Below, piece by piece: positions 1,270-23,435 of a stretch of DNA of 32,000 nt (the stretch's first letter is position 1; each line of letters opens with the position of its first letter). The DNA is from Tannockella kyphosi (GTDB lineage Bacteria > Bacillota_I > Bacilli_A > Erysipelotrichales > Coprobacillaceae). The translations under genes were made by a program, and so were the position numbers. The stretch is taken from the NCBI RefSeq assembly GCF_021054785.1, contig NZ_CP088239.1, positions 750,001 through 782,000 on the forward strand. The letters run 5' to 3'. A model generated the notes under the pieces. It ran no database searches. It was not told the DNA's origin and was given only the letters and a program-made list of their open reading frames with translations.

Positions 1270-1271
1270 AT

Positions 1272-2195: not shown

Positions 2196-2204
2196 ATACC
2201 ATAT

Positions 2205-3017
2205 TTAACCTTTCATTATTTCTTCTTTACTAACAAAGTATTCTTTGTGCATACTTGCGTTATCATCCAATCTTAAAATAGGATTCTCATGGTCGTAAAT
2301 ATATCTTGAATTGTATTCATAAATTCGTAAACACACTTTTTCTATTAGAAACAACACTTTTTCGTTATCTGATAATTTGTCATTGTTATCAAACATTACT
2401 TCAGATAAAGGAACGAGATATTCATAACAGTAATACGTGCTGTTTTTTGTATAGTCTTTTAATACACTAGGAAATTTCAAAAAAACAGCTAAATCGCTTA
2501 TAAATTCAGGAGCAGAAAACAACGCAGTATAGTAACTGTTTTGATGAAGTTGATCCTTTAGAGAAAATCCATTAAAACAATAATCTTGTCTATCTTGATA
2601 GTATCCTAATCTAACTTTTAGACGAGCTACATTAGCTGTGCTAGAGTAGTTGTCAAGATCCAACTCTTGCAATACCCCTTTATAGTAGATCTCGATATAA
2701 TTATTATTTTCTTGAAAAGCGATTTTGTATGAAGCTAAATAATCACTCAATGCTGTTTTATTTAATAGCAAATCCCTTAAATTCAATCCGTTATCATTTA
2801 TATCCGAATTCAATCTTCTACCTAAATGAAAGAATAAAATCTTATCTAATTTCTTTACAGGTCTACACTGCTTTACAAATTCTTTAATGCCTTGGCAAAA
2901 AATATCAGAACTCATAGCAGCACTGCTTATTTGATGTAAAAGACTTTCTTCGGAAACATCTAAGTATCTACAAAGAGAGTCTATCATAGTTTCTTTTGTA
3001 TATGTTTGTATATGCAT
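2205..3017 (-). CDS. Hypothetical protein (270 aa), no recognised domain
   Basis: The ATG at 3017 immediately follows the TAA of the DUF4391-like gene, with a GGAGG 8 nt upstream. The only motif-like element I see is RYIYDH (an Rx4H pattern) near the C-terminus, which is weak on its own. Confidence 0.55.
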   Translation of the reverse strand: MHIQTYTKETMIDSLCRYLDVSEESLLHQISSAAMSSDIFCQGIKEFVKQCRPVKKLDKILFFHLGRRLNSDINDNGLNLRDLLLNKTALSDYLASYKIAFQENNNYIEIYYKGVLQELDLDNYSSTANVARLKVRLGYYQDRQDYCFNGFSLKDQLHQNSYYTALFSAPEFISDLAVFLKFPSVLKDYTKNSTYYCYEYLVPLSEVMFDNNDKLSDNEKVLFLIEKVCLRIYEYNSRYIYDHENPILRLDDNASMHKEYFVSKEEIMKG

Positions 3018-3734
3018 TTAACACTCCTCCAAGCAACTAATATGATTTTTTATCTTTTTATTTAGCTTTACTTTCTCGATATTTCCACTAGCTTTTACTA
3101 AGCTAAGTTTAAGTAATTCCAACCCTCTCAAATTAGCATACAGCTTACGAACTTTACTTTCACTATACCAAATATCCTTGCGCATTAAAAATTCTTTACT
3201 GTTTGCATACACCTTACTATTTGTCAAAATATATGCCTTAACATACATTTCAAGGTAGGTAGTAACTTTGTTTTGCTTGCCAATAAGATTATCTAGTGCT
3301 AGGTGGTTTTCCAGTTCCTTTTTATCAGTGCTAGTGATAGTGGTATAAAAATCACTTGTCACTAGAGTATCAGTCACTACAATTTGTGTATTATCTGTTT
3401 GGCTAAGTCTTTTAAGTGCGAAAGAGTAAACCTCTTTGCTATTGTCGTGTAGCCTTAATACACAAGGTGATTTGATGATAGTTTGATACATATTAGCTAA
3501 AAAAGTAGCCTTTTTAATATCTACGAGTTCAAGGTCATAAAACTGAATTGTCCACACATTATATTCATCATTTATCACCGATGGAATTTCTTCGCCAATA
3601 ATCTGATATGAAAGTGTGCAGCTCTTAACATTGTCTTTGATTTTCTTTTTAACGGCAGGCTTTAGTTCCTTTGGAATAAAGTCTTTCATTGGGAGCTTTA
3701 TATCGACTTTGTACTTATCATCTAGTTTTAGCAT
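3018..3734 (-). CDS. DUF4391-like protein (238 aa), helicase/methylase-associated
   Basis: Its size, its position between an SNF2 helicase and a Mod methylase, and the N-terminal pattern (...KDFIPKELK...) match my recollection of DUF4391. This is not HMM-verified. The start overlaps the helicase stop (TAATG at 3732-3736). Confidence 0.5.
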   Translation of the reverse strand: MLKLDDKYKVDIKLPMKDFIPKELKPAVKKKIKDNVKSCTLSYQIIGEEIPSVINDEYNVWTIQFYDLELVDIKKATFLANMYQTIIKSPCVLRLHDNSKEVYSFALKRLSQTDNTQIVVTDTLVTSDFYTTITSTDKKELENHLALDNLIGKQNKVTTYLEMYVKAYILTNSKVYANSKEFLMRKDIWYSESKVRKLYANLRGLELLKLSLVKASGNIEKVKLNKKIKNHISCLEEC

Positions 3735-6700
3735 TATTCCACCACCAAAAATGAGATAAGCTCAAAATCGTCCGTTGTATCATCAGCAAAAGCATTATTA
3801 AAACCACCAAAGTCAAATGACATGGAAATAGCTTTTTCTTCTTCAACACCCTTTATCGATTTCACAGCCTTATTTAGCAAGTCAGAGTAGAACGACATAT
3901 TATTGGTGTGGCTTGTTCGGTTAAGAAACTTGTCGAAATATTCTTTCATTGGCTGGCTTTTGCCATAGCATAATTTACGGAACACTTTTAAAACTTCTCT
4001 AGCTTGACTGTTTCCATATAAGATTTCCCCATCATTACTAATATAGATCGTGTAGTATGGATAGAGAGATGAGTCGGATTTTGGTTTGTCGCTTAAATTG
4101 CTATGCTTAAAGCAAAGCAACACACCATGATTTTCTCCATCTGTAACGGAATAAATTCCATTAGGGACTTTTTTAAGTTCAGCATGATTGCTTATATAGG
4201 AAGAAAGCTCGTGTAGATACTCATTCATATTTAGGTCAGATAGAGATATGTTTTCATTTGCGTCATCAATATCTATCACTTCATCTTTCAGTCTTTCAAG
4301 CTGTCTTTTTCTGAAATTAAAATCATTCATCTCGGGAGTTAGGACATCTTCATCACCAGTAGAAACAAGGTTGAGTGTAGTCATTTTACCTTTTACTCGT
4401 TGCTCTAATCCAAGATACTCGTTTAATTCCATGTTAGGGAAGAAGTTTATCATTTGTATCTGTTCGTTTGTGCTACCGATACGATCAATTCTACCAAATC
4501 GCTGTATCAGTGATACAGGATTCCATTGAATATCAAAGTTGATAACAGTATCGCAGTCTTGTAAGTTCTGTCCCTCTGAAATACAATCTGTACCAATAAG
4601 AATATCTATTTGTTCTTTGTGTGGTATTTCTTTCTTCGTTTTAGATTTAGGAGAGAAAGCACACAAGACATCATTAAACTTAGCATCTATTAATTTGTTG
4701 GTGGTTTTAGCACCTTTACCAGTAACAACAGCAGAATGAATATTATTGCTTTTTAGCTCACTTGCGATTTCTTTATAAATATAGTCAGCAGTATCAGAAA
4801 AAGCAGTGAAGATTAGTAACTTTCTATTACCTACGTTATAAGGTGTTGTAGTGATTTTCTTAATAATAATTTCTTTAAGTTCTTCTATTTTAGCATCTCG
4901 GTTTAAGTCCAAAATTTGCTTTGCTTCAGCATAGATTTTTTTCAATATGATTTTATCACCTTCGAGATCGTTTAAATAATCTACAATACGCAAATGTTTT
5001 ACTTCAATTTCATACTTGCCTTCAAGATATGGATATTCTTCATCACCAAAATCACCTTGTTCTTCATCTACATATCCACCATTTTCAAGCCGATAAATTG
5101 TATTATCAATCTTTTCAAGTAGTCGTCTTAAAGTTTCAGCGAATGAAAATACAGAACTTTCAAGTCTTTTAAATAGATTAAATCTATGCAAGACTACCAT
5201 ACCTTTTGATTGAGTATCAAAATCCATCTTACCACCACGTTTACCAGTTAATTTGTACTTTTCGAGGTATATTTTTTGGAACTCTGATTTAATATATTTA
5301 GTTGGAGTATAAACCGATAAGTTTAATACCTCTAGTAACTCGTTAGTATCCTCAAATTTCAGCAAAATAGACATTGTATCTATGTCATTGCGAATAGTAT
5401 CGGGTTTATTCTTTTCGGGAAATTTACCGACGCTGCTGCTTCCATAAAATCCAGTAATGTGTTTTCTACTTCGTGATATGGTCAGTATTTCCAGTAGTTT
5501 ATAAAAATCTGATGGCAAGCTATCTAGCAATAAATTTTTGTTTTTACTATCTTCTCTTTCCCAAAGATTGATAGCAGCAGAAGTCTTTCTAAGTAGATTA
5601 TCCACACTAGAAATACCCTCACCTTGGAATGCAAAATCTTCATCTCTTGAAATAATGCTTATCTGATTTTTCAAGTCTACTAAACTGTTATTTACTGGAG
5701 TAGCAGAGAGTAATAGCACCTTTGTACTATTCTTCCCCTTTTTGATAACATCTTGTAGTAGCCTTGCGTACCTTGTCATAATCAGCTGATCATTATCGTC
5801 ATATCTGTCTTTACGATTTCTAAAATTATGGGACTCATCAATTACAACTAAATCGAAATCGCTCCAGTTGAATTGTTTTAAATCATGTCCCGATGTAGAC
5901 ATACCCTTATATCTCGATAAGTCAGTATGAAACAGTATTCTGTAATTAAATCTTTCATTAAGGAAACTTCCTTTGTTATCCCCTTTAAAAGAATTCCAGT
6001 TATCATACAGTTTAGCAGGTGTTAAAACTAGAACATTATCCATTTTGATTTCAAAATATTTGATTACAGCAAGAGCTTCGAATGTTTTACCCAAACCAAC
6101 AGAGTCAGCAATAATACAGCCACCATATTTATGAAGCTTTTGAATAGCTGATACAACGCAATCTTTTTGAAAATCAAATAGTGCATTCCATATTTCTGTA
6201 CTTTTGAATTTTTGGCTATCATTTTCAAATCGCTCAACACCACTATCTAATTGATGTCCAAATAGCTCGTTTAGAGTGAAGTAATATAGAAACTCTGGCG
6301 AGTGGTCTTTATATATGTAAGCCAAACTTTGTAATAATTCCTGTTTATAATCAGCAGAATATTGTTCGTTATACCAAATTTGCTCAAAAACATTTTTAGC
6401 GTGGTTTATTTGTTCCTTATCTATACTGCCATTAAGCATAGTATCAAAATTAAAACTTTGTATGCCACGTTTTCTCTTGGGTGTAAGCTCTAATGACGAT
6501 GATCCTTGTATCATGAAGTCGTCATCTATAATTAAAACATTGCCACCAATATTAACTTTAGGATTAACTTTCTTTACATTAACATTTTTCTTTATGAAGT
6601 CGTGCATTGCTTTTGCTTTCGCAAAATGTTCTAATTTGTTTTTCTCTACAATGTCATAAGAGTTGTATAAAATATCATTCGGTGATATTTCAAACTCGTG

Positions 6701-6907
6701 GGATATTTCGGTCTTATCGGGTACGAATTTTGTATCTCTAATTATAAAATTAATTTCTTTTACATTTTTTAAGTTCTTTTCTAATAATGCAAACACCGAT
6801 AAAGTAAGTTTATCATTCACTATGTTTATCGTAGCATTAGTTTTAGTTTTAAGAACATCATTTATTTTTTCAATAAGATGCTCCGAATTGTTCACTACGT
6901 TACTCAT
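3734..6907 (-). CDS. SNF2-family (SF2) helicase/ATPase with an N-terminal PLD-like region
   Basis: Helicase motifs are present: ADSVGLGKTFEA (I), VVIDESHNFRN (II, DExH), LLLSATPVNN (III) and GTDCISEGQNLQ...QRFGRIDRIGS (V/VI). The N-terminal ~170 aa contains ...GGNVLIIDDDFMIQGSSSLE, resembling the GSxN half of a PLD fold without a clear HxK. The ORF is open to 6943, but the ATG at 6907 has the best RBS (AGAGGA, 8 nt upstream). Confidence 0.85.
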   Translation of the reverse strand: MSNVVNNSEHLIEKINDVLKTKTNATINIVNDKLTLSVFALLEKNLKNVKEINFIIRDTKFVPDKTEISHEFEISPNDILYNSYDIVEKNKLEHFAKAKAMHDFIKKNVNVKKVNPKVNIGGNVLIIDDDFMIQGSSSLELTPKRKRGIQSFNFDTMLNGSIDKEQINHAKNVFEQIWYNEQYSADYKQELLQSLAYIYKDHSPEFLYYFTLNELFGHQLDSGVERFENDSQKFKSTEIWNALFDFQKDCVVSAIQKLHKYGGCIIADSVGLGKTFEALAVIKYFEIKMDNVLVLTPAKLYDNWNSFKGDNKGSFLNERFNYRILFHTDLSRYKGMSTSGHDLKQFNWSDFDLVVIDESHNFRNRKDRYDDNDQLIMTRYARLLQDVIKKGKNSTKVLLLSATPVNNSLVDLKNQISIISRDEDFAFQGEGISSVDNLLRKTSAAINLWEREDSKNKNLLLDSLPSDFYKLLEILTISRSRKHITGFYGSSSVGKFPEKNKPDTIRNDIDTMSILLKFEDTNELLEVLNLSVYTPTKYIKSEFQKIYLEKYKLTGKRGGKMDFDTQSKGMVVLHRFNLFKRLESSVFSFAETLRRLLEKIDNTIYRLENGGYVDEEQGDFGDEEYPYLEGKYEIEVKHLRIVDYLNDLEGDKIILKKIYAEAKQILDLNRDAKIEELKEIIIKKITTTPYNVGNRKLLIFTAFSDTADYIYKEIASELKSNNIHSAVVTGKGAKTTNKLIDAKFNDVLCAFSPKSKTKKEIPHKEQIDILIGTDCISEGQNLQDCDTVINFDIQWNPVSLIQRFGRIDRIGSTNEQIQMINFFPNMELNEYLGLEQRVKGKMTTLNLVSTGDEDVLTPEMNDFNFRKRQLERLKDEVIDIDDANENISLSDLNMNEYLHELSSYISNHAELKKVPNGIYSVTDGENHGVLLCFKHSNLSDKPKSDSSLYPYYTIYISNDGEILYGNSQAREVLKVFRKLCYGKSQPMKEYFDKFLNRTSHTNNMSFYSDLLNKAVKSIKGVEEEKAISMSFDFGGFNNAFADDTTDDFELISFLVVE

Positions 6908-6963
6908 TTGTTTCATCCTCTCATTTCTTGTTTGTACATACAAAATTAGCTGTGGAATGCCTT

Positions 6964-7179
6964 TTATTCATTAATTGTTTCTCGTACAACATCACATATA
7001 TCTCCAATGTTGCAATTTAAGTAATCACATATTCTGATAAGAACTGATAGTGAAACTTCTTCACTCTTATTTAATTTGTTCAAAGTGCCTGTCGCTAAAT
7101 TTAAATCTTTTCTCATTGTTGGTTTTGAAATATTTTTCTCAATAAGTAAAATCCATAGCTTTTTATAGCTTATCTTCAT
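6964..7179 (-). CDS. Small XRE/Cro-type HTH regulator (possible controller protein of the downstream operon)
   Basis: The ~71-aa sequence MKISYKKLWILLIEKNISKPTMRKDLNLATGTLNKLNKSEEVSLSVLIRICDYLNCNIGDI is a typical short HTH_26/XRE protein. The ATG at 7179 has a GAGGTG RBS 7 nt upstream. The ORF track starts at a TTG at 7185. Confidence 0.75.
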   Translation of the reverse strand: MKISYKKLWILLIEKNISKPTMRKDLNLATGTLNKLNKSEEVSLSVLIRICDYLNCNIGDICDVVRETINE

Positions 7180-7232
7180 ACTCAATCACCTCGTTTTTCT
7201 TTTTCGTTTTACGCAAAATCATCTTATCCTAT

Positions 7233-7261
7233 ATTATATCACAAAGATATCTAAAGCACAA
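7233..7261 (-). promoter_or_regulatory. Sigma-A-type promoter for the XRE-helicase-methylase operon
   Basis: The minus strand reads TTGTGC (7261-7256), a 17-nt spacer, then TGaTATAAT (extended -10, 7241-7233), about 45 nt upstream of the XRE start. Confidence 0.4.
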
Positions 7262-7275
7262 TAAAACCTACCTTC

Positions 7276-7309
7276 TTTTTATCAAAATAATGCAACTTCT
7301 TGATAAAAA
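7276..7309. promoter_or_regulatory. Perfect 10-bp inverted repeat (TTTTTATCAA-N14-TTGATAAAAA), candidate operator
   Basis: Read directly from the sequence. It lies just upstream of the predicted -35 of the minus-strand promoter. Confidence 0.35.
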
Positions 7310-7576
7310 TTATTATCCTGTTGTAATTTTAATAAGATCAAGTGGCACGAGTATAAAAGCATTTTTTTGCTTACAAGTCATTTTCCTTCAAGCATAAACA
7401 AGTTTTGCCTTGCTATGAAAGCGGTATTTGTAATTTTATAAGAGCTTTTTACACAGCTTGTCGATACAAATTACATTATTTTATCTTTCAACAGTATATG
7501 ACAAATTCTGCCATTACATTGTTGTATTATAGGTTTATGGCTATAAAGGTTAGCCTATTAACACAATAGATGTGAG

Positions 7577-7942
7577 GTGAGAGAAATTAGTGGTGATAAA
7601 CCGATTTACAAGAAACTGATAGGTATTATCGAAGATGATATTTTAAATGAAACGTACAAGGAGGATGAAATTATTATTTCAACAACACAGATTAGCAAAC
7701 AGTATGAAGTAAACTCAACAACAGCAATGAAAACGATTAGTGTATTAAAGGAAAATGGAATTATTTATAAGAAACGAGGAATTGGAATGGCAGTTACAAG
7801 TAATAGCAGGAGCATTATTTTAAGCAAACGAAAAATGATGTTCATGGATCAATTACTACCGGAACTTATTTTAGAAGCAGGTAAGTTAGATATATCGAAA
7901 AAAGAATTAGCGACTTTGATATTGAAAGGTGAACTTTATTAA
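7577..7942 (+). CDS. GntR-family (YtrA-like) transcriptional regulator
   Basis: A winged-HTH pattern is present: PIYKKLIGIIEDDILNETYKEDEIIISTTQISKQYEVNSTTAMKTISVLKENGIIYKKRGIGMAV. The short C-terminal tail is typical of the YtrA subfamily. GTG start. Confidence 0.75.
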   Translation: MREISGDKPIYKKLIGIIEDDILNETYKEDEIIISTTQISKQYEVNSTTAMKTISVLKENGIIYKKRGIGMAVTSNSRSIILSKRKMMFMDQLLPELILEAGKLDISKKELATLILKGELY

Positions 7943-8112
7943 GAGATACATTTGCCAATAAATGTAGTAATTATCTACTGTTGTATAATGAAATTTCAGA
8001 ACATGAAAGTATCATCTATTATTATTTAACACAGCTATGTGGGGTAATACTATGAAGTACACATTATTAGATAACGACGATAGTATACATAAAACACTAA
8101 AATACATTGAAA

Positions 8113-8144
8113 GCAGTAATCCGAAAAGGGTTACTGCTTTTTTT
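8113..8144 (+). terminator. Rho-independent terminator
   Basis: GCAGTAA-N11-TTACTGC stem followed by T7. Confidence 0.5.
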
Positions 8145-8164
8145 ATAAGTTGCGAATTTTGTAG

Positions 8165-8214
8165 AAAAAGGCGATTTTTTGACACGTACAGTGTTCAAAA
8201 GGTCGCCTTTTTTT
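8165..8214 (+). terminator. Rho-independent terminator (long imperfect hairpin)
   Basis: AAAAAGGCGA ... TCGCCTTTTT outer stem with an inner TTTTGACAC/GTGTTCAAAA pairing, followed by a T-run. Confidence 0.5.
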
Positions 8215-8329
8215 GTTACATAAATAATTTGATTTTAATTTCAAGAAGATGGGAGTGCTACAAGCTCAAGTATCCGTAATTTTTTAATTTTTGACAAACA
8301 ACAAATTAAAAAATTAAAGGAGAAAGAAA

Positions 8330-8812
8330 ATGAAAACACCCAAAGAATTTGATTATGACTTATGGAAAGATGAAACAGGAAGAGGTTTTATCAGAGTAAA
8401 ACGAACTGGAGAGGTTTGTGAGGTAAATGATGATACATTTAGAGTTTTAAGAAATGAAGCGATGGCGATCTATCGCAATAACAAAGGTGTTCCAGTCTAT
8501 GGAGTTGAAAATGGTAAAAGTGTAGTAGTTCGTTATACTACCAACTTAGCTTTATACATAGAGGAAGGCAATGAGGATATCGGTGCAGACTGGAACATTG
8601 ATAAAACAGACTTAGAAAATGAAATACTAACAAAATTACTTATAGAAGATTTTTGTGAATTACTTACGGACAAGCAGTTAGATGTATTGGAGCAATGTTT
8701 AAAGAAAGGTATGCTTCCGGCTGAGTATGCAAAAGAAAAAGGAATTAGCAAGCGTGCTGTCGGGTACACGATTGAGGGGATTGAAAAAAAAGCAAAAAAG
8801 TTTTTTGACTGA
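8330..8812 (+). CDS. Sigma-70 region-4-like HTH protein (mobile-element regulator)
   Basis: The C-terminus, LTDKQLDVLEQCLKKGMLPAEYAKEKGISKRAVGYTIEGIEKKAKKF, resembles a sigma-70 r4/LuxR-type HTH. Good RBS (AAAGGAG). Such proteins commonly sit upstream of serine recombinase modules in clostridial elements. Confidence 0.6.
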   Translation: MKTPKEFDYDLWKDETGRGFIRVKRTGEVCEVNDDTFRVLRNEAMAIYRNNKGVPVYGVENGKSVVVRYTTNLALYIEEGNEDIGADWNIDKTDLENEILTKLLIEDFCELLTDKQLDVLEQCLKKGMLPAEYAKEKGISKRAVGYTIEGIEKKAKKFFD

Positions 8813-8889
8813 TACTTCACTTTCGTTCATGTTTTGTAGGTTGTTAAGTGAAAGGGATATATAACGACCCTTTATGTTCTTTGACAACC

Positions 8890-9330
8890 GAATATACAGT
8901 ATTGCAAATACTTTCCGTTTAAGTCGAGCAACAAGGATTAAGTCGCCATGACCTCATAGAGTAATTTTAGTGTGCAACTAATTTTATATAAAGAATAACA
9001 CTAAATGACCTTTATGTGATAGCGAGAAACTGAGTTCCGAAACAAACAATGTGGTGTTGTTTGTTTGCCAAGAAACCTAAACGTAATAATGATACTCCTG
9101 TCCAGCCAATAGCTCGAGCGTGATGAAACCGTCGCAAGCAATGGAGGCAGCTACGAGAAATCCTCGCAGGGGTTAGATTCCCGTGATGCCAACCAATGGC
9201 AGTTTGCAGTATTCCCTACATCAACGAGAGTTGATATTGACAGGGTTGTTGAGAACAAATATGTCAAATAAAAACAAACCAATAAAATTTTAAGTAGCAG
9301 AATGTAGAAATATGTTCTGCTACTTTACAT
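8890..9330 (+). ncRNA. Candidate structured non-coding RNA or long structured leader upstream of mazF (family unknown)
   Basis: No ORF of 60 aa or more on the + strand in this ~440-nt interval; the only track ORF reaching it is the rejected minus-strand ORF ending at 8887. I counted 80 G+C in the 160 nt of 9091-9250 (50%), against 21/90 (23%) for 9261-9350. Several clean hairpins are present: 8898-8912, 9040-9066 (10-bp stem), 9220-9235 (6-bp stem with a GAGA tetraloop) and 9292-9325 (11-bp stem). A long-range CCTGTC/GACAGG pairing links 9097-9102 and 9239-9244. Confidence 0.3.
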
Positions 9331-9349
9331 ATTATGAAAGAGGTAAAAA

Positions 9350-9715
9350 ATGCAGAAAAGTAGAATATATCGTGGAGATATTTATTACTGTGACTTAGAG
9401 CCAGTAAAAGGTTCTGTACAAGGTGGTGTAAGACCAGTGTTAATCATTCAAAATCAAATAGGTAACGATTATGCTCCTACACTAATAGTTGCAGTTATAA
9501 CAACTAATATGAAGAAATTAAATCAGCCTACGCATATCGTAATAGGCAAGAATTATGGACTTGAAGATCCGTCAATGGTTATGCTAGAGCAGATTAAGAC
9601 TATTGATAAAAGTGAGCTTAGAAGCTATGTAGGAAGAATTAGCGAGCCTTTTACCATTCAAAAAATAAATCAAGCCTTAGAAATCAGCTTAGGATTAAAA
9701 AATGATGGAATATAG
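9350..9715 (+). CDS. mazF: MazF/PemK-family endoribonuclease toxin
   Basis: The sequence RGDIYYCDLEPVKGSVQGGVRPVLIIQNQIGNDYAPTLIVAVITT...THIVIG...SMVMLEQIKTIDKSEL is the canonical PemK pattern. RBS AAGAGG. Confidence 0.85.
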   Translation: MQKSRIYRGDIYYCDLEPVKGSVQGGVRPVLIIQNQIGNDYAPTLIVAVITTNMKKLNQPTHIVIGKNYGLEDPSMVMLEQIKTIDKSELRSYVGRISEPFTIQKINQALEISLGLKNDGI

Positions 9716-9776
9716 TTTTTGCTCTGTCATAACCCTTTGTCCCAAATCATACTATGAAACAGGAGGTGCAGAAACT

Positions 9777-10019
9777 ATGGTGAATTTAGATGATTTAAAG
9801 AATGTTGACCCACGAACAGTGGATAGAAGTTCTCTTGTGGAGAGAAGCTCCGTGAAAATAGACCCTAATGCTACAAAAGAAGAAAGATTAAGTGAATATA
9901 TCAAGCAAATTAAAAATCCGTATTGTTATCTCGATGGAAAGACTGTTGTTAAAATTAGCTTTGCAAATACGGATACTTCTATTGAAGATTGTATTTCTAA
10001 TTATTTAAAAGGTGTATAA
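9777..10019 (+). CDS. DUF6870-like small protein (80 aa)
   Basis: The sequence MVNLDDLKNVDPRTVDRSSLVERSSVKIDPNATKEERLSEYIKQIKNPYCYLDGKTVVKISFANTD... matches my recollection of the small IKNPYCF-motif proteins found next to serine recombinases. An AGGAGG RBS lies at 9761-9766, so the start is taken at 9777 rather than 9702. Confidence 0.55.
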   Translation: MVNLDDLKNVDPRTVDRSSLVERSSVKIDPNATKEERLSEYIKQIKNPYCYLDGKTVVKISFANTDTSIEDCISNYLKGV

Positions 10020-10113: not shown

Positions 10114-11745
10114 ATGCCGAAAAAAGTGTATAAGGCAGTAGTCTATTGCAGGCTTTCAAAAGAAGATGGCGATAAAGTAGAAAGTAATAGTATTCGTGGA
10201 CAAAGAGCTTTTTGTGAAGAATTTATATCTAAGCAAAAAGATATAACAATTGTTCATGATCCTATTGTTGATGATGGTGTGAGTGGTGTTTCTTTTGAAC
10301 GAGCTGGATTTAAAGAGCTTGAAGAAGAAATCAAAAAAGGAAAAGTAGATTGTGTTGTAGTGCGTGACTTATCGAGGTTTTCTAGGAACTATATTGATGC
10401 AGGAAGATATTTAGAGAAAATCTTTCCCAATCTAGGTATTAGGTTTATAGCTATCAATGATAATTATGACAGTTTAACCAGTGACCCACAATCAGATGCT
10501 TTTGTTTTACCATTCAAAAATCTAATCAATGACACCTATTGTAAAGATATTTCAGTTAAAATTCGTTCTAGCTTAGAGATTAAGAAAAAGAATGGAGATT
10601 ATGTTGGTCCATTTTGTCCTTATGGATATAAGAGAGATGAAATAGAACGACATAGATTAGTAGTTGATGAAAACACAAGAGAAACAATACAGATGATTTT
10701 TTCTTTGTTTAAAGATGGCATGAGTATCGGGAAAATCAAACAACGACTAAATGCCACTGGTATATTGCCACCAATGGATTATAAGCGATCTACGGGTGTT
10801 AATTTTGAAACTGTATTTAAGACAAGCGATACAGCAAAATGGGAATACAATACTGTTAAACGCATTCTCACTAACGATTGTTACATAGGTGTCCTAACAC
10901 AAGGAAAAAGAGGGACACCAAACTACAAAGACCGTAGAACCAAAAACAAAGATGAAAGTGAGTGGGTGAAAATTGAAAATTCCCACGAAGCTCTTATTTC
11001 TTATGAGGATTTTGTAGCAGTAAATAGTCTATTAGCTAGAGATATGCGTTCAACAGTTGATGATAGCGAAAATTCATTATCGGGATTTGTGTTCTGTGCC
11101 GATTGTGGAGCAAGTATGATACGCAAAACTGTTCCATCAAGAGGGAAAAAATATGTATATTATATTTGTTCAAAAAACAAAAAGCACAAAGTTTGTAGTA
11201 CGCATAGCATGGCATTAGTTGAAGTAGAAGAAAAAGTACTAAATGGAATTAGAGATCAAGTAGAACTTGTTGTTAATCTTGAAAAAGCACTTGAACTTAT
11301 AGATGAAACACCTAGTAACAATAGGCAGATATTTAGTTATGAAAAACAGATTGATACATTGAAAGCTGAAATAGAGAGATACCAAAAACTTAAACTTAGG
11401 CTGTACGAAGATTATAATGATGAAATAATCACGAAAGATGAGTATTTTGAATTCAAGAAAATCTACACTTCTAATATAGAAGAAAAAGTAAAGACAATTA
11501 AGCAACTTGAAAAAGAATGTTCACAAGCAATAGGCACTGTTAGTTCTTCAAAAACATGGATAGCAATATTTAAAGAGTATGAAAATTTCATAGCACTTAA
11601 TCGAAGGGTACTATTATCGTTGGTAGATAAAATACTGATTTATGAAAATCATGTTATTGGAGTTGTATTTAAGTACAAAGATGAATACGAAGAAACTTTA
11701 GATTTTATTTTAAAGTTCGAGAATAAAGAAAAAATTGCAGGATAG
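10114..11745 (+). CDS. Large serine recombinase 1 of 3
   Basis: N-terminal resolvase domain (VVYCRLSKEDGD ... VVVRDLSRFSRN), recombinase domain, zinc ribbon (CADCG...YYICSKNKKHKVCSTH) and a C-terminal coiled coil. Confidence 0.9.
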   Translation: MPKKVYKAVVYCRLSKEDGDKVESNSIRGQRAFCEEFISKQKDITIVHDPIVDDGVSGVSFERAGFKELEEEIKKGKVDCVVVRDLSRFSRNYIDAGRYLEKIFPNLGIRFIAINDNYDSLTSDPQSDAFVLPFKNLINDTYCKDISVKIRSSLEIKKKNGDYVGPFCPYGYKRDEIERHRLVVDENTRETIQMIFSLFKDGMSIGKIKQRLNATGILPPMDYKRSTGVNFETVFKTSDTAKWEYNTVKRILTNDCYIGVLTQGKRGTPNYKDRRTKNKDESEWVKIENSHEALISYEDFVAVNSLLARDMRSTVDDSENSLSGFVFCADCGASMIRKTVPSRGKKYVYYICSKNKKHKVCSTHSMALVEVEEKVLNGIRDQVELVVNLEKALELIDETPSNNRQIFSYEKQIDTLKAEIERYQKLKLRLYEDYNDEIITKDEYFEFKKIYTSNIEEKVKTIKQLEKECSQAIGTVSSSKTWIAIFKEYENFIALNRRVLLSLVDKILIYENHVIGVVFKYKDEYEETLDFILKFENKEKIAG

Positions 11746-11754
11746 GAGAAAACA

Positions 11755-13449
11755 ATGGCAAGAAAAAGTAGAGTAAATATTATGCTAGATGAAAACGCAG
11801 TAGTTCAGATGTCAAATAGATTTCCTACTGCAATTTATGCAAGGTTATCAGCAGAAAATAGTGGCAAGGGAACTGATAGAGATATTATCGCAAACCAAAT
11901 TGAAGTGTGTAAGAGTTATATAGGAGAAAACCCACATTTGGATTTAATGGATATATATACTGATGATGGCTACACAGGAACAAAGTTTGATAGACCGGCA
12001 TTCAATCGATTAATGGACGATGTTAAAAGTGGCAAGATTAAATGTATTGTAGTCCGTGACCTCAGTCGTTTTGGTAGAGATTATATAGAAACTGGAACAT
12101 ACATGGAGAGAATTTTTCCGACTCTAGGACTTAGGTTTATAGCTGTGAATGAACGATACGACAGCTTTGAAACCGACCATACAAACGAAGCCTTAATGAT
12201 ACCACTTCAAAATATGATAAATACTCTTTATGCAAAAGATATTTCACGTAAAATATCAGCTTCGCATAGGACAAGAATATTATCAAGGGATTTCAAAAAG
12301 AATATGATACCTTACGGTTATAAGTTAGATGAAACACGATATGAAGTTTCTATCGATGAAGTAGCAGCTCATTATGTAAGGTTTATATTCAATTGGAAGA
12401 TAGAGGGAAAATCTATTAAGCAAATGATTGTGATGCTAGAGGAAATGAACGCACCTAATCCTCATATAAGAAAAATTCAAACTGGATTACGAGGTGGTCA
12501 AGTAGAAAACTTTGGAGGTTGGCATTATTCTACCATTCAAAATATGCTTTGCAATCATGGTTATTTGGGACATACTGTATTCGGAAAAACAGAAATTGCA
12601 TTGTATAAAGGCATAAATAGGAAAGAGTATAGAGAACCCGATAATTGGGTTATATTAGAAAATACTCATGAGCCTATTATTTCGGAAGATGTCTTTAACA
12701 AAGTACAAGAAATAAGAAAGTTAGGAGCTGAAAAGAAACAGGAAAGTATTAAACGAACAGAAAAGAAAAGAGCAAAACTTATAGATTTGTTCAAGGGTAA
12801 GATTTTTTGTAGTGACTGTGGCAAAACGCTATCCTATATTAGAATGGTTGATGGAAATAACTTTGGTGCTTACTATACATGCCCAACTTACGCAAGAAAA
12901 AAAGTATGTACAAAACATAGCGTAAATTATTTAATAGTTAATGCAACGGTTCTCAAAGTAATTCAAACACAAGTTAAAGTAGCTCTTGATTATGAAGTTT
13001 TATTAAATAAAATAAAGCATAGTGAAAGTGATAAGAGCATTAGAGATAAGCAAAATGCTAATATTTCCAGTTTAAATCTTAAGATAAATGGTATCAGTAG
13101 AAAGCGAAGTCGGTTATATGAAGATTATGCTGAAGGGGTTTTAGATGAGGAAGAATATACTTTTGTGAAGCAGAGTTATGATGATGACTACAATAGTTTA
13201 AAAATGTTATTAGATGAAGCATTGCAACGTCGTTCTAAATTCAATGAAGCTATGTCTAGTGATAACAAATGGATCAGCTTAATGAAGTCTGTGAGTTCAG
13301 CTAAAATATTAACACAAAGTCTTGTAGACGAAGTTATAGAAAAAGTATCGGTACTTGAAGATGGAACACTAGATATTGCAATGAAATATTTCGATGTATT
13401 TTCTCTTATGCAAAATACTGTGGCAAAAGTGCAGGAGGTGACAGTATGA
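11755..13449 (+). CDS. Large serine recombinase 2 of 3
   Basis: AIYARLSAENSG ... IVVRDLSRFGRD, and zinc ribbon CSDCG...YYTCPTYARKKVCTKH. Confidence 0.9.
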   Translation: MARKSRVNIMLDENAVVQMSNRFPTAIYARLSAENSGKGTDRDIIANQIEVCKSYIGENPHLDLMDIYTDDGYTGTKFDRPAFNRLMDDVKSGKIKCIVVRDLSRFGRDYIETGTYMERIFPTLGLRFIAVNERYDSFETDHTNEALMIPLQNMINTLYAKDISRKISASHRTRILSRDFKKNMIPYGYKLDETRYEVSIDEVAAHYVRFIFNWKIEGKSIKQMIVMLEEMNAPNPHIRKIQTGLRGGQVENFGGWHYSTIQNMLCNHGYLGHTVFGKTEIALYKGINRKEYREPDNWVILENTHEPIISEDVFNKVQEIRKLGAEKKQESIKRTEKKRAKLIDLFKGKIFCSDCGKTLSYIRMVDGNNFGAYYTCPTYARKKVCTKHSVNYLIVNATVLKVIQTQVKVALDYEVLLNKIKHSESDKSIRDKQNANISSLNLKINGISRKRSRLYEDYAEGVLDEEEYTFVKQSYDDDYNSLKMLLDEALQRRSKFNEAMSSDNKWISLMKSVSSAKILTQSLVDEVIEKVSVLEDGTLDIAMKYFDVFSLMQNTVAKVQEVTV

Positions 13450-14996
13450 GTGTAGCTATGTATATTAGACTTTCCGATGCTGACGAAGATACTGGTTTTA
13501 GCAAAACAGAAAGTGATAGTGTTGTTAATCAAAGATTATATATCAATGATTATATTAACAAACAAACCTCACTTTCAAGACTTGCACGATTTGAGTTTGT
13601 TGATGACGGATATACTGGAACGAATGATGAACGTCCAAGTCTTAATAAAATGATGGAAGCTGTGAGGAGTGGAATTGTAAAAATAATTTGTGTGAAAGAT
13701 TTTTCACGGTTTTTTCGAGATTATATTGAAGCAGGAAACTATTTGGAGTGCGTTTTTCCATTCTTAGGAGTGAGATTTATTTCTATAAACGACAACTATG
13801 ATAGTGATGATTACAAAGGGACAACTGGTGGTTTAGAAATGGTAATGAGAAATATTATCTATACTGCTTATAGCAAGGATTTATCGCTTAAAGTATCCAG
13901 TGGTAAATTGGAGTTAATCAAGAAAGGTAAGTTTATAGGAAGTCACGCACCTTATGGTTATAAGAAAGATCCTAACGATAAAAACAAGATAATCATCGAT
14001 GATGAGTCTGCTAAAGTTGTTAGGTTAATATTTGACTCGGCTATGAACGGGAAAACTGTAAGAGAAATAACACTCATTTTAAATGAAAAGGATATACCAA
14101 CAAAAAGTCAATATTTCAAACTTAAATATCCCGACAGTAATAAGTATAACTATATGTATGAGAAAATACATTGGCAACCATCGAGGGTATACGACATCTT
14201 AAAAAACAGTCTATACAAAGGTGATATGGTGTCTTTAAGGAAAAAGAAAGTTAGCTTCAATTCAAAAAAACTAATAAAGCAAGACCCTATTATTATAGAA
14301 GATAATCATCAAGGGATTGTTACAAAACAAGAATTTGAAGAAGCTCAAAAGGTTATCAAAATATCAAAGCAAGCATCAAAGAAAAACTATATAGACTTTC
14401 CATTACGAGGGTTAGTTCGATGTGGTCATTGTCAATATTTAATGGACAGAGTGAAAAAACAAGGTGTGTTTTACTTTAAATGTAAAAGTGCCTTAAATGG
14501 AAAAATTGATGCCTGTAAAACCAATATTGATACAGATGAAGGAACGGTAGAGGGTGTTGTATTTCATGCGATTATGAACTTTATTGCATTTACTAAGCAA
14601 GAAGATATCAAACAAACAAAACCAACTTCTTATGATTTGACGATTCACCTCACAGAGCTTTCCAATAAGATAGCAGGACTTAAACAATCAAAACTTCGAC
14701 TTTATGAAAAATATACTTGTGATGAATTAACTAGAGAAAATTATATCAAGCAAAAACAAGAATGTGATAAGAAAATTAAATTAGCAGAAGAACAGATAAG
14801 CGAATATGAAGTAAAACTTAGGGAGCAGGCATATTCCGAAAAAGAAAAACCTGTTATTGGTATTTGTGACAAATATATATCGGAAAGCAAACTCACCAAA
14901 GAAATGGTAAACGCATTTATTAAAACAGTCTATGTTTTTGATAAAGATACAATTCATGTAGAGTTCAAATACAAAAATGTTTTTGAAGAAAGGTAG
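13446..14996 (+). CDS. Large serine recombinase 3 of 3
   Basis: AMYIRLSDADED ... ICVKDFSRFFRD, and zinc ribbon CGHCQ...YFKCKSALNGKIDACKT. The start overlaps the stop of recombinase 2 (ATGA). Confidence 0.9.
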   Translation: MSVAMYIRLSDADEDTGFSKTESDSVVNQRLYINDYINKQTSLSRLARFEFVDDGYTGTNDERPSLNKMMEAVRSGIVKIICVKDFSRFFRDYIEAGNYLECVFPFLGVRFISINDNYDSDDYKGTTGGLEMVMRNIIYTAYSKDLSLKVSSGKLELIKKGKFIGSHAPYGYKKDPNDKNKIIIDDESAKVVRLIFDSAMNGKTVREITLILNEKDIPTKSQYFKLKYPDSNKYNYMYEKIHWQPSRVYDILKNSLYKGDMVSLRKKKVSFNSKKLIKQDPIIIEDNHQGIVTKQEFEEAQKVIKISKQASKKNYIDFPLRGLVRCGHCQYLMDRVKKQGVFYFKCKSALNGKIDACKTNIDTDEGTVEGVVFHAIMNFIAFTKQEDIKQTKPTSYDLTIHLTELSNKIAGLKQSKLRLYEKYTCDELTRENYIKQKQECDKKIKLAEEQISEYEVKLREQAYSEKEKPVIGICDKYISESKLTKEMVNAFIKTVYVFDKDTIHVEFKYKNVFEER

Positions 14997-15063
14997 GTAG
15001 CGATGAGGAAAACAAACCGGATTAGAGATGATACAAGGGTTTATATTTTTTTAGTCCTTAGTT

Positions 15064-15082
15064 TACACAATCAGATTGTGTA
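15064..15082. repeat. Palindrome TACACAAT-CAG-ATTGTGTA at the element/spoIVA junction; candidate attR core
   Basis: Perfect 8-bp arms read from the sequence. The right arm encodes the D-C-V codons where SpoIVA homology starts. The left arm belongs to sequence with no SpoIVA homology. Confidence 0.45.
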
Positions 15083-16261
15083 GGATTTCTGGTAGATGGG
15101 GCTAAGGGATATGAAGATGAACAGGGGATAAGATATGTTAAAACACCCTGGTTTCTAGAATCTATTCCTTTTGATAAAGCAGCTGAAGTTGGAACAAAGA
15201 AGGTTATACAGGATCATTCTACAATAGGTATTGTAGTAACATGTGATGGAACAATTAGTGATATTCCTGAAGAGAATTATCGAGAGGCTACTAATGCTGT
15301 TATTGAAGAATTACAAGCAATAGGGAAACCATTTATTGTATTAGTAAATAGTATTTCTCCAACAAGTAGAAAGTGTAATGATGTTGTTAGTAGTTTAAAA
15401 GATAGATATGATGTACCTATTCTAGCAATGAATATTAATGAAGTGGAAGAAGAAGATTTAGCTATTGTATTAAAAGAGTCATTGTATGAATTTAGTATTA
15501 GTGAGGTAAAAATTGAGGTTCCTAAATGGCTTGCAATGTTATCAAATAATCATTGGTTAAAACAAACATTAGATAGTTCTTTAGAAGAATCTATGCAATC
15601 TATTAAGAAATTCAAAGATGTTGAAATTATTGCAAATGCTATTAGTCAATATGATTTTGTAGAAAAAGCATATTTAAGTGGTATTGATACAAGTACATCA
15701 AGTGCAACATTAAAGATAATAGAAAAAGAAGGTCTTTATAATAGTGTTGTTGAAGAAATAGTAGGAGATAAAGGTCTTGATCAAGCAACGTTCTTACATT
15801 TTATACAAGAGTTAGTAGATATAAAACAAGAATATGAACGATATGCTAGTGCATTAAAAATGGTAAAACATACTGGTTATGGCTATGCCATTCCGCCATT
15901 AAAAGACATTCAATTAAGTGATCCTGAAGTAATTAAACAAGGACCTAGATATGGTATGAAATTAACTTCTAAGGCTAGTACAACATATATGATTAATGTC
16001 GATATAGAAAGTACATTTGAACCGATAATCGGTTCAAAACAACAAGCAGAAGCATTTATACAATATGTTAAAACAAATGGTGAAGATAAAAAAGCAGTGT
16101 TTGATTGTGATGTTTTTGGTAGAAAATTAGGTGATTTAATTGAAGAAGGTCTATATATTAAAATAGATGCTATTCCTGAAAGTGCTAGTCAACGTCTACA
16201 TGATATTTTATATAAAATAGTAAATAAAGGAAAAAGTAATGTCATTGCAATTGTTTTATAG
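15074..16261 (+). pseudogene. spoIVA: Stage IV sporulation protein A, 3' segment only (about residue 97 to the end); gene split by the mobile element
   Basis: Translation from 15074, in frame with the track ORF at 15428, gives DCVGFLVDGAKGYEDEQGIRYVKTPWFLESIPFDKAAEVGTKKVIQDHSTIGIVVTCDGTISDI...ALKMVKHTGYGYAIPPL...NKGKSNVIAIVL. It is collinear with B. subtilis SpoIVA from ...DCVGYTVPGAKGYED to ...GGLIAIIL, as I recall that sequence. An in-frame TAG lies at 15059-15061, and no Walker-A N-terminal part is present. Confidence 0.85.
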
Positions 16262-23101: not shown

Positions 23102-23435
23102 ATGCTTATGAGAGTTGATTGCTACATTAGTAGAGGAAAGTCCGCGCATCCACAGACTGAAATGTTTGTAGTGTTTGTACTCAATCCAATAAATTGAGGC
23201 AGGTAACTGACGACAGGCCTAAGACCTAAGCGATAAAGTAAGGTTGTTAAGTCAAAAAGTGCCACAGAAACTATATCTATTTGAAAAAATAGGCTGAAAA
23301 GAGGTAAACTCTGCAAGGATGAAACCCAAATTTGGTAGGGGAATTAGGTAAAAGGAATAACAATGGATACCTAAATGCATTGCATAGATAAATAATCGAC
23401 TGAAAAACAGAACGCGGCTTATCAGAATAAGCATC
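23102..23435 (+). ncRNA. rnpB: RNase P RNA (bacterial type B), compact at ~335 nt
   Basis: The conserved P4 strands GAGGAAAGTCCG (23133-23144) and ACAGAACGCGGCTTA (about 23408-23422) are present, together with AAGTGCCACAGAAA and ACCCAAATTTGGTAGGGGAA elements. P1 pairs TGCTTAT (23103-23109) with ATAAGCA (23427-23433). Confidence 0.85.

Follow-up and report, generated by a model that had tools for sequence, protein, structure and literature searches.

The essential sporulation gene spoIVA of the fish-gut bacterium Tannockella kyphosi is split by an element of at least 15 kb that carries a defence-like gene cluster, a MazF toxin gene and a DUF6870 gene with three tandem large serine recombinase (LSR) genes, and that has integrated site-specifically into the GAT triplet of codon Asp97. 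Judging from the junctions compared, one element family targets exactly this spoIVA codon in very different endospore-forming Firmicutes, and this element probably leaves the gene again when the cell sporulates, in the manner of elements in other sporulation genes. Developmental excision is also the whole explanation of the split gene towards which we cautiously lean.

The window, that is the whole stretch of 32,000 nucleotides that was analysed, holds only codons 97–491 of spoIVA:

15074–16261, plus strand: spoIVA 3′ fragment (WP_249030577.1), codons 97–491 and stop codon, open and intact according to translation, Pfam and tblastn

An earlier reading of the letters alone (the sequence-only reading) had claimed that no more than the last ~395 SpoIVA codons are present and that homology begins at 15074, behind an in-frame TAG at 15059–15061. 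Translation of 14999–16261 agreed on both counts, giving SpoIVA from DCVGF at 15074 to the stop codon at 16259–16261 (395 codons, no internal stop), with the TAG and, upstream of it, unrelated sequence on the 5′ side of the homology. The SpoIVA_ATPase profile of Pfam was matched from position 97 of 237 only, and SpoIVA_middle and SpoIVA_C were complete. Residues 97–491 of the closest full-length SpoIVA (P0001, 491 aa) aligned to 15074–16258 with 88% identity in tblastn, and the N-terminal part of the same query had no match anywhere in the window. GC content shows no contrast across 15074 that would mark an element boundary. Selection on the gene is strongly purifying (dN/dS 0.07 in the lineage), and no part of spoIVA is more conserved than the motif VRLVDCVG, in which Asp97 lies.

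The missing 5′ half, which had been expected to carry the motif GxxxxGKS, was found in the same genome as a protein known from the same 2.26-Mb replicon (P0122, WP_318031845.1) with an intact Walker A motif (GPVRTGKS). P0122 ends in VRLVD followed by an element-derived tail, DCVIIGLNRKKP, that matches the reverse-strand reading of 15075–15034; this is its best tblastn match in the window, weak if taken alone (E = 0.42). The tail mirrors the right end, so the core is flanked by element ends that repeat each other imperfectly in inverted orientation, the arrangement of LSR attP sites. Joining P0122 and the 3′ fragment in silico restored the frame, as had been anticipated, and yielded the natural 491-aa gene of wild T. 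kyphosi (contig L114). Precise excision would thus rebuild a gene identical to the wild allele. The genome also contains a second 5′ copy of spoIVA elsewhere (P0139, WP_249029628.1), which was ruled out as the partner of the 3′ fragment because it is frameshifted and because the N-terminus of the natural intact gene is that of P0122. A second intact spoIVA, which the sequence-only reading had named as counting against itself, was not seen in the genome's protein record. The 5′ part is nearly identical to that of the P0001 gene; an att-mediated exchange was ruled out as the source, the breakpoint lying at about nt 240–246, ~45 nt upstream of the core, and the similarity is that of an ordinary homologous-recombination mosaic.

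The insertion site could be defined from three metagenome contigs of wild T. kyphosi (L113–L115), which are 99.8–99.9% identical to the window from exactly 15074, show no mismatch across the 3′ fragment (100% identity) and carry an uninterrupted 491-aa spoIVA. Their intact gene fixes attB and the 3-nt crossover core:

15074–15076, no strand: crossover core GAT (codon of Asp97), the sole stretch common to attB, attR and attL
15037–15073, plus strand: element-side (P) arm of attR, including the conserved half-site TTTAGTCCTTAGTTTACACAATCA at 15050–15073
15064–15082, no strand: perfect palindrome spanning the junction, TACACAATC / GATTGTGTA, 9+1+9 nt, 100% complementary
attB junction sequence: GGTTAGTGGATTGTGTAGG
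attP junction sequence, predicted: ACACAATCAGATGATTGTGT
attR junction sequence: ACACAATCAGATTGTGTAGG

For T. kyphosi attL was read as codons (peptide VRLVD-DCV), and as DNA it was read in L082; the dinucleotide cleaved at the core is predicted to be GA or AT. The P arm is identical in L108, related in L109, L110, L116 and L111, and the mirror image of both the left arm of L082 and the P0122 tail. The palindrome reported at 15064–15082 is real, with arms slightly longer than first described. It had also been expected that joining the halves would restore it in attB, which is not the case: the sequence of the empty site, AAGGTAAGGTTAGTG-GA-TTGTGTAGG, forms no palindrome. The palindrome is, on this comparison, a hybrid of the right arm of the element and the spoIVA-side arm, both of which have the motif ACACAA/TTGTGT. 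The half-site pattern is unique within the window; in metagenomes the pattern TTTAGTCCNNNNNTTACACAANCA hit 25 loci, all of them chance matches with neither spoIVA nor a recombinase gene nearby.

Uninterrupted genes, which the sequence-only reading had suggested looking for in related genomes, were found in wild T. kyphosi and in 80 relatives, with none of the 80 relatives' loci interrupted at codon 97. The element was not detected in the wild T. kyphosi assemblies, and its proteins were found only in the isolate's NCBI record, which together mark it as a recent, unfixed acquisition. These data also bring in plain insertional inactivation, a reading to which we give a substantial chance, though one short of even, and which the sequence-only reading had itself named as its alternative, an asporogenous strain. 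It holds that a triplet-LSR integrative element, possibly conjugative or mobilisable, uses the highly conserved VDCVG stretch of spoIVA merely as a dependable landing site and excises only for its own transfer, so that carriers including the isolate cannot complete sporulation. The intact wild gene and the absence of the element from those assemblies fit this reading, as does the nature of the target: at the DNA level spoIVA is nowhere better conserved than in GATTGTGT, whose letters are the majority base at ~90% or more of nearly every position among the 80 relatives. In addition, another paper cites the description of T. kyphosi (type strain) among species “described as non-sporulating”, and disruption of the target gene is documented for triplet-LSR elements (Ambroset et al. 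2016, PMC4701971).

The part of the element that lies within the window comprises the following features:

1–6943, minus strand: element cargo, a restriction/defence-like cluster
1–555, minus strand: DPPY-motif DNA methyltransferase of the cargo cluster, running off the window
within 1–6943, minus strand: three genes of the cargo cluster without assigned family
3018–3734, minus strand: DUF4391 gene of the cargo cluster
3734–6943, minus strand: HKD+Snf2 helicase gene of the cargo cluster
6964–8812: putative element regulators (Pfam)
6964–7185, minus strand: Cro/CI-type HTH, putative regulator
7577–7942: GntR-like winged HTH, putative regulator
8330–8812: protein with a sigma-region-4-like HTH, putative regulator
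9086–9186, plus strand: pemK RNA motif (Rfam RF02913), upstream of mazF
9350–9715, plus strand: MazF/PemK toxin gene (Pfam), which precedes the module in L116 and IMG/VR relatives as well
9727–9755, plus strand: promoter-like motif of the sporulation-sigma (sigma-E) type, TCATAAC-14 nt-CATACTAT, situated in the 61 nt that separate mazF from the DUF6870 gene
9777–10019, plus strand: DUF6870 protein, 80 aa from an ATG behind AGGAGGTG, directly upstream of the LSR triplet
10114–11745, plus strand: SrA, LSR with YCRLS motif (Pfam domains)
11755–13449, plus strand: SrB, LSR with YARLS motif (Pfam domains)
13446–14996, plus strand: SrC, LSR with catalytic YIRLS motif (Pfam domains), nearest to the junction

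The recombinase genes do sit at the junction, as had been noticed, the last of the three ending 77 nt before 15074. SrA, SrB and SrC each contain Resolvase, Recombinase and Zn_ribbon_recom domains, and the catalytic serine motif is kept in all three in every orthologue. Each matches the gene at the same position of other triplets best (61–65%, 52–59% and 47–53% identity, respectively), compared with 26–32% across positions. No plus-strand terminator-like site was found inside the DUF6870–LSR operon, and in all modules compared the DUF6870 gene directly precedes the triplet. Its position, size and co-conservation, and these only, make the DUF6870 protein a candidate recombination directionality factor (RDF); the predicted structure (mean pLDDT 58) was too poor to use. 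Phage genes were not visible in the 15 kb of the element within the window, nor were relaxase or type IV secretion genes seen in this right-hand part.

The DUF6870 and three-LSR module adjoins codon 97 of spoIVA in four other hosts (L108, L109, L110 and L116) whose SpoIVA proteins are 35–67% identical, so that the same codon, with a shared core of 3 nt, is struck in five hosts including T. kyphosi. ORFs that match the left junction were found in additional lineages (P0161/L082, P0364/P0366 and P0365). In L108, SrC is 86% identical and the P arm identical, whereas the host SpoIVA is only 35% identical. Since related elements occupy the same spoIVA codon in at least four other bacteria, excision in spore formation is probable rather than proven. 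The recurrence also makes an assembly artefact or a misjoin at 15074, in favour of which nothing was found, practically negligible as an explanation: the same junction architecture is present in four independent assemblies of other hosts, and the 5′ and 3′ proteins are called separately in the NCBI record of the 2.26-Mb replicon. A further reading is a relic that has lost the ability to excise, with the two 5′ copies of spoIVA left by old rearrangements and not by an active system. The frameshifted P0139 and the split SrB of L110 would suit a relic, but in the window none of the recombinases, DUF6870 or the two att arms is damaged, the 3′ fragment does not differ from the wild allele, and a right end with 82% nucleotide identity over 3.1 kb and an identical P arm is present in a distantly related host, which implies recent mobility. 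We regard a relic as very improbable.

Persistence of the family at one site across such divergent hosts, together with divergence of SrC down to 49%, implies a long association with spore-formers and speaks against mere inactivation, as does the absence of decay: all gene halves seen are intact, and neither the four complete 3′ fragments nor the partial one in L116 contains a stop codon. Intact halves would, however, also be expected if every observed insertion were recent. Close relatives of the module insert into recombinase genes and not into spoIVA, sister targets that have no developmental link and therefore favour inactivation. A scan of viral contigs with SrC as single protein gave no match, and an alignment-based scan of viral contigs (IMG/VR) recovered only relatives that are not inserted in spoIVA.

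The sequence-only reading had proposed looking for sigma-E- or sigma-K-type promoters upstream of 10114. The sigma-E-like motif at 9727–9755 answers to this, and a pattern of [GT][AC]ATAnn, 13–14 nt and CATAnnnn lies 42–50 nt before the DUF6870 start codon in four of four spoIVA-inserted elements (background expectation 0.01 per 80 nt), a further point against mere inactivation. The same architecture precedes spoIVA itself in relatives from the Erysipelotrichales. Across the window, the motif class is not enriched (three found, 3.2 expected). Under the strict pattern, the promoter seemed confined to the spoIVA clade (4/4 versus 0/10), but alignment revealed a related block in the wider family: relatives outside spoIVA have a promoter-like block that contains CATAAGATG and, in its spacer, a conserved TTGTCCC, the upstream element in the wider family being kCATTTT or GTTCTAY. 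The block may be ancestral, or a different sigma factor or regulator may use it.

Many gut Firmicutes with full sets of sporulation genes are called non-sporulating only because they did not sporulate in culture, which weakens the type strain's reputation as an argument for inactivation. SpoIVA is a morphogenetic ATPase that appears early and depends on sigma-E; its role in the mother cell is established in B. subtilis and C. difficile. Developmental excision, the preferred reading, could proceed as follows. The 5′ fragment, trailed by TGATTGTGTAATTATTGG, would lie in the same orientation at a distance of one element length upstream. Growing cells would not suffer from the split, spoIVA being required in the mother cell only. 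During sporulation, a sigma-E-type factor of the mother cell would transcribe DUF6870, SrA, SrB and SrC from the promoter at 9727–9755; with DUF6870 acting as directionality factor, recombination of attL with attR by one or more of the three recombinases would rebuild spoIVA for expression, while the element would be retained in the forespore chromosome. The earlier “skin-like” interpretation, at whose centre stands excision in the mother cell, is partly supported as a whole; mother-cell excision itself is what we infer from the combined analysis. More tentatively, and with a somewhat greater chance of being wrong than right, the DUF6870 and triplet cassette may be a sporulation-sigma-controlled excision module of a large element family of gut Firmicutes that leaves only in the terminal mother cell, with one clade settled on spoIVA and DUF6870 constituting a new RDF family.

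Elements known to be excised by serine recombinases in sporulation are skin (in sigK), SPbeta (spsM), vfbin (spoVFB), vrin (spoVR), gin (gerE) and yin (yabG); yabG belongs to the sigma-K regulon, and gerE and spsM are late mother-cell genes (PMC5595907, PMC4191935, PMC10747680). Our literature search returned no published report of an intervening element in spoIVA. We file the T. kyphosi element in the same class, with a triplet-LSR integration module: a mother-cell sporulation gene is interrupted, both halves are present in one genome with a restorable frame, and a serine recombinase gene lies beside an att site with inverted-repeat arms and a short core; for the module, three tandem LSR genes lie at one extremity, the insertion is in a coding gene with a 3-nt core, and orthologues cluster by position. 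Skin, SPbeta, vfbin, vrin and yin likewise interrupt mother-cell sporulation genes. Those genes are rebuilt in frame by LSR excision, with the recombinase or RDF under sporulation sigma control; the T. kyphosi counterparts of both the excision and its control are putative. In contrast, they are prophages or remnants with a single recombinase, whereas the T. kyphosi element has three LSRs and no phage genes in 15 kb.

The closest likeness in content is to gin of Bacillus cereus ATCC 10987, a non-phage-looking element in a mother-cell sporulation gene that has three serine recombinase genes and a restriction–modification cluster (here restriction/defence-like), recombines at a short core within an imperfect inverted repeat, and employs a small RDF, GirX, together with a recombinase (PMC5595907); the DUF6870 protein is the candidate counterpart of GirX. 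Besides the target (gerE instead of spoIVA), the two differ in that girA and girB form an operon, girC lies apart and only GirC and GirX are needed, whereas the T. kyphosi genes form one tight tandem operon behind the DUF6870 gene; moreover, excision of gin has been demonstrated experimentally (PMC5595907), while that of the T. kyphosi element is predicted from sequence. According to Ambroset et al. 2016 (PMC4701971), the triplet modules of streptococcal integrative and conjugative elements (ICEs) also consist of three LSR genes in tandem at one extremity and integrate site-specifically inside protein-coding genes, with a duplicated core of 2–8 bp (3 bp in T. kyphosi) and orthologues grouping by triplet position. 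Their targets in that paper (mutT, hsdM and traG) have no developmental role and are disrupted, and the text consulted mentions no DUF6870 partner. The T. kyphosi LSRs are only ~33–38% identical to the streptococcal examples, and a conjugation module such as those ICEs have was not seen in the right-hand 15 kb of the element within the window. SCCmec resembles the element in being mobilised by more than one co-operating LSR encoded in an operon (ccrA/ccrB), but has two recombinases instead of three, targets orfX/rlmH and has no sporulation context.

With attB, attR and the attP dyad defined, substrates for in vitro tests are at hand. Among coat-morphogenetic proteins, SpoIVA alone is conserved across all endospore-formers (bioRxiv 10.1101/2022.02.25.481979). 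If the element is not developmental, its family would be a horizontally spreading “sporulation killer”, with a bearing on the transmission ecology of gut anaerobes and on “non-sporulating” isolates. If it is developmental, the phenomenon would extend to Erysipelotrichales and uncultured gut Clostridia, a testable role would open for the uncharacterised DUF6870 family and for recombinase triplets, which are poorly understood, and spore morphogenesis would hinge on a rearrangement of DNA at the sigma-E stage, to our knowledge the earliest among such cases. The universal coat and cortex morphogenetic ATPase of endospore-formers would then, in the spoIVA clade, depend on a DNA rearrangement.

The spoIVA reading frame in the window is open from DCVGF (15074) to the stop codon at 16259-16261 (translation of 14999-16261) and is preceded by an in-frame TAG at 15059-15061. 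The Pfam match to the SpoIVA ATPase domain begins at profile position 97 of 237, and the middle and C-terminal domains are complete; residues 97-491 of P0001, the closest full-length SpoIVA (491 aa), align to the window at 88% identity (tblastn), and the same query did not find the N-terminal part in the window. Translation, Pfam and tblastn thus confirm the truncation proposed by the sequence-only reading, with homology from 15074 and the TAG upstream of it. The recombinase genes that it had placed at the junction do lie directly upstream of the spoIVA fragment, each encoding a large serine recombinase (LSR) with the catalytic serine motif present:

10114-11745, SrA
11755-13449, SrB
13446-14996, SrC

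Downstream of the fragment follow hbs, genes for a zinc peptidase, dnaD, nth, a PBP, recU, RNase P RNA, recA and other ordinary chromosomal genes, in an order shared with the closest relative. The RNase P RNA gene is of class B and lies at 23106-23424 (+) between divIVA-like and HTH genes (Rfam RF00011, 209 bits). At NCBI, the 3' fragment is annotated as ‘stage IV sporulation protein A’ (377 aa, ATA start codon, 15128-16261) and the 5' fragment as a hypothetical protein of 128 aa; because neither is marked as half of a split gene, sporulation-gene surveys would score spoIVA as present.

Searching for the missing half with P0001 residues 1-96 matched two T. kyphosi proteins, both on the 2.26-Mb replicon to which exact protein matches assign the window. 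P0122 (WP_318031845.1, 127 aa, ‘hypothetical protein’ at NCBI) has an intact Walker A motif (GPVRTGKS) and is the expected 5' fragment; it ends in ...NAKVRLVD followed by DCVIIGLNRKKPVN.... This tail aligns with 15075-15034 translated on the reverse strand (DCV..GL.(K/R).KP), its best tblastn match across the whole window with a score that is by itself weak (E = 0.42), so the two element ends are imperfect inverted repeats around the crossover, the usual anatomy of a serine-integrase attP. The other protein, P0139 (WP_249029628.1, 101 aa), is a decayed second 5' copy that ends in VRLVDSVRF and whose Walker A region is wrecked by a +1/-1 frameshift pair; WP accession numbers follow gene order along the window, which would place it ~600 genes away. 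No further T. kyphosi SpoIVA C-terminal sequence was present among the best 120 matches listed, and no second intact spoIVA was seen.

With the neighbouring HU protein as query, we obtained three Logan metagenome contigs (L113, L114 and L115 from runs SRR26879383, -82 and -86, respectively) in which spoIVA is uninterrupted. From exactly 15074 onward their identity to the window is 99.8-99.9%, and all nine mismatches lie past 17060. In sequence, the 491-aa protein of L114 is P0122 residues 1-97 followed by the window fragment, showing that joining the halves restores the frame and yields a natural protein. The empty site, attB, reads AAGGTAAGGTTAGTG-GA-TTGTGTAGGATTTCTGG, the right junction, attR, TTTACACAATCA-GA-TTGTGTAGG, and the codons at the left junction, attL, are GTG GAT GAT TGT GTA. 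Since GAT is the only stretch common to all three, the cleaved dinucleotide is GA or AT, at 15074-15076. The junction palindrome at 15064-15082 (9+1+9 nt) is real; its supposed counterpart in attB is not, as attB of the empty-site contigs is not palindromic. The palindrome is explained by a recognition-like motif that occurs both in the element arm (…TTACACAATCA) and in the spoIVA-side arm (TTGTGTA…); attP is predicted to be a near-perfect dyad, TTACACAATCA-GA-TGATTGTGTAA.

Two further features concern the 5' side of the gene. L115 (1-78) differs from L113 and L114 by three synonymous SNPs over the 78 nt 5' of the att core and is identical to them downstream, which points to a second 5' spoIVA allele in the wild population. 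A comparison with the closest relative's gene (L114 3-1478 against L081 67-1542) shows that the spoIVA of T. kyphosi is mosaic, with 96% identity (dS 0.21) over the first ~240 nt and 83% (dS 1.06) over the remainder; the breakpoint precedes the att core by ~45 nt, indicating homologous recombination and not the element.

In the mechanism under consideration, the element would be precisely excised during sporulation and spoIVA would be rebuilt in frame. Alternatively, the element may plainly inactivate spoIVA, a serious possibility that we rate short of probable. The element's MazF, SrA and SrC are present only in the isolate's NCBI record and the flanking chromosomal proteins also in Logan assemblies, so the sampled wild population is without the element; this counts against developmental excision, as does a paper in which the T. 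kyphosi description is cited among non-sporulating taxa.

Four further junctions of the same kind were reached via SrC homologues.

Further spoIVA junctions and identity of their recombinases to those of the window
L108, ENA ERZ27277072: SrC 86%; element-side arm identical, 82% nt identity over 3.1 kb
L109, MAG GCA_964369475.1: SrC 52%, SrA 65%, SrB 59%
L110, MAG GCA_964370845.1: SrC 49%; SrB in two ORFs
L116, Logan SRR26879388: SrC 53%; contig stops within the spoIVA fragment

After SrC, all four junctions read ...ACACA(A/C)NCA-GA-(T/C)TG(T/C)GT... and continue with SpoIVA from Asp97. Identity among the host SpoIVA fragments is 35-67%, and no fragment contains a stop codon. (In L110, SrB is broken at 8339-9999 into ORFs of 389 and 178 aa, either by a frameshift or through faulty assembly.) P0161/L082, P0364/P0366 and P0365 supply left-junction ORFs, which read VRL(V/I)D-(D/A)CVIIGL..., and the left arm of L082 as DNA, GA-TGCTTGTGTAATAATAGGACTAAAC, mirrors the right arm of the window. 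In related species, spoIVA is uninterrupted at this site in all 80 loci fetched, as it is in L113-L115; within the region examined in these 80 loci, no stretch is more conserved than the target DNA, GATTGTGT(N)GG. The spoIVA-splitting element is real and well defined, and is a member of a recurrent, previously undescribed family targeting spoIVA; full-text literature searches found no published report of an element in this gene.

The same module, a DUF6870 gene plus SrA-SrB-SrC, also occurs away from spoIVA in L111, L112 (Vescimonas fastidiosa replicon) and 24 IMG/VR contigs, with SrC 37-48% identical. Several of these relatives are inserted within another serine recombinase gene, in the stretch that codes for D(L/F)(S/T)R(F/L)GR. 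That triplet-LSR elements elsewhere plainly disrupt genes again speaks for inactivation and against developmental excision. Elements nested in this recombinase region lie at ~1700-1890 of L111, at 10590-12475 of L112 and after SrC in L132 and L136; the target DNA there, GATTTGTCAAGATTTGG, resembles the spoIVA site, GATTGTGTAGGATTTCTGG.

The DUF6870 gene always lies directly upstream of the LSR triplet and encodes an 80-aa protein whose C-terminal half is strongly conserved. From its position, size and co-conservation we propose it as a candidate directionality factor; a single-sequence structure model was too poor for use, and the family went unmentioned in the literature searched. No plus-strand terminator-like site was found within DUF6870-SrA-SrB-SrC.

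A search for sigma-E or sigma-K-type promoters upstream of 10114 had been suggested. The B. subtilis sigma-E-type consensus is kmATATT-14 nt-CATACAhT, and TCATAAC-14 nt-CATACTAT at 9727-9755, inside the 61 nt that separate mazF from the DUF6870 gene, fits it. The same architecture is found 42-50 nt upstream of the DUF6870 start in L109, L110 and L116 (background expectation 0.01 per 80 nt), and spoIVA itself lies behind promoters of like shape in Dielma, Holdemania, Breznakia and other Erysipelotrichales. Two observations temper this: the motif class is not enriched across the whole window, and in an alignment of the wider family a conserved related block (kCATTTT or GTTCTAY, followed after 15-16 nt that include TTGTCCC by CATAAGATG) is also present in members outside spoIVA. 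The putative promoter is thus probably ancestral to the DUF6870-triplet module, and another sigma factor or regulator could also use it, an ambiguity that counts against developmental excision. Many Coprobacillaceae spoIVA genes (L001-L035) have, ~50 nt upstream, a promoter-like GTTCTAA(A)-14 nt-CATATA(A/T)(A/T) in which the classical kmATATT -35 element is replaced. Upstream of DUF6870 in L128, L130, L131, L133, L134 and L140, TTGTCCC-N3-4-CATAAGATG(T)TGAAAG is conserved, and base pairing of GTCC(C/T) with a GGAC further downstream gives some members a hairpin with CATAAGATG in its loop; the block may be a regulatory element instead of, or besides, a promoter.

Cargo in the visible 15 kb of the element
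1-6943, minus strand, defence-like cluster: element methyltransferase with DPPY motif (runs past the window edge); three proteins without family match; DUF4391 and an HKD+Snf2 helicase (PADLOC candidate C3a139, E = 5e-211)
9086-9186, plus strand, pemK RNA motif (Rfam RF02913, 59.7 bits), upstream of the mazF/pemK toxin gene
visible 15 kb, three HTH regulators

No antitoxin gene is evident between the pemK RNA motif and mazF, and no phage structural genes were seen in these 15 kb. Elements excised at sporulation have been described in sigK, spsM, spoVFB, spoVR, gerE and yabG (PMC4191935, PMC5595907, PMC10747680). The closest system is gin in gerE, which likewise looks non-viral and has three serine recombinases and a restriction-modification cluster; in contrast, gin's three recombinase genes do not form one operon, and only GirC and the RDF GirX are required. 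Tandem serine-integrase triplets are also reported from streptococcal integrative conjugative elements (PMC4701971), where integration is site-specific, targets mutT, hsdM or traG and involves repeats of 2-8 bp.

On balance, we lean towards developmental excision of the spoIVA element. In-frame reconstitution is exact, spoIVA is required only in the mother cell, one target specificity is kept across deeply divergent spore-formers, and the gene halves are intact everywhere; strong purifying selection on spoIVA in the lineage (dN/dS 0.07), the putative sporulation-type promoter before the excision module and the uniform precedent favour it as well. The spoIVA element, which uses a triplet-LSR module, is best classed with the known sporulation-gene intervening elements, its developmental behaviour being putative.
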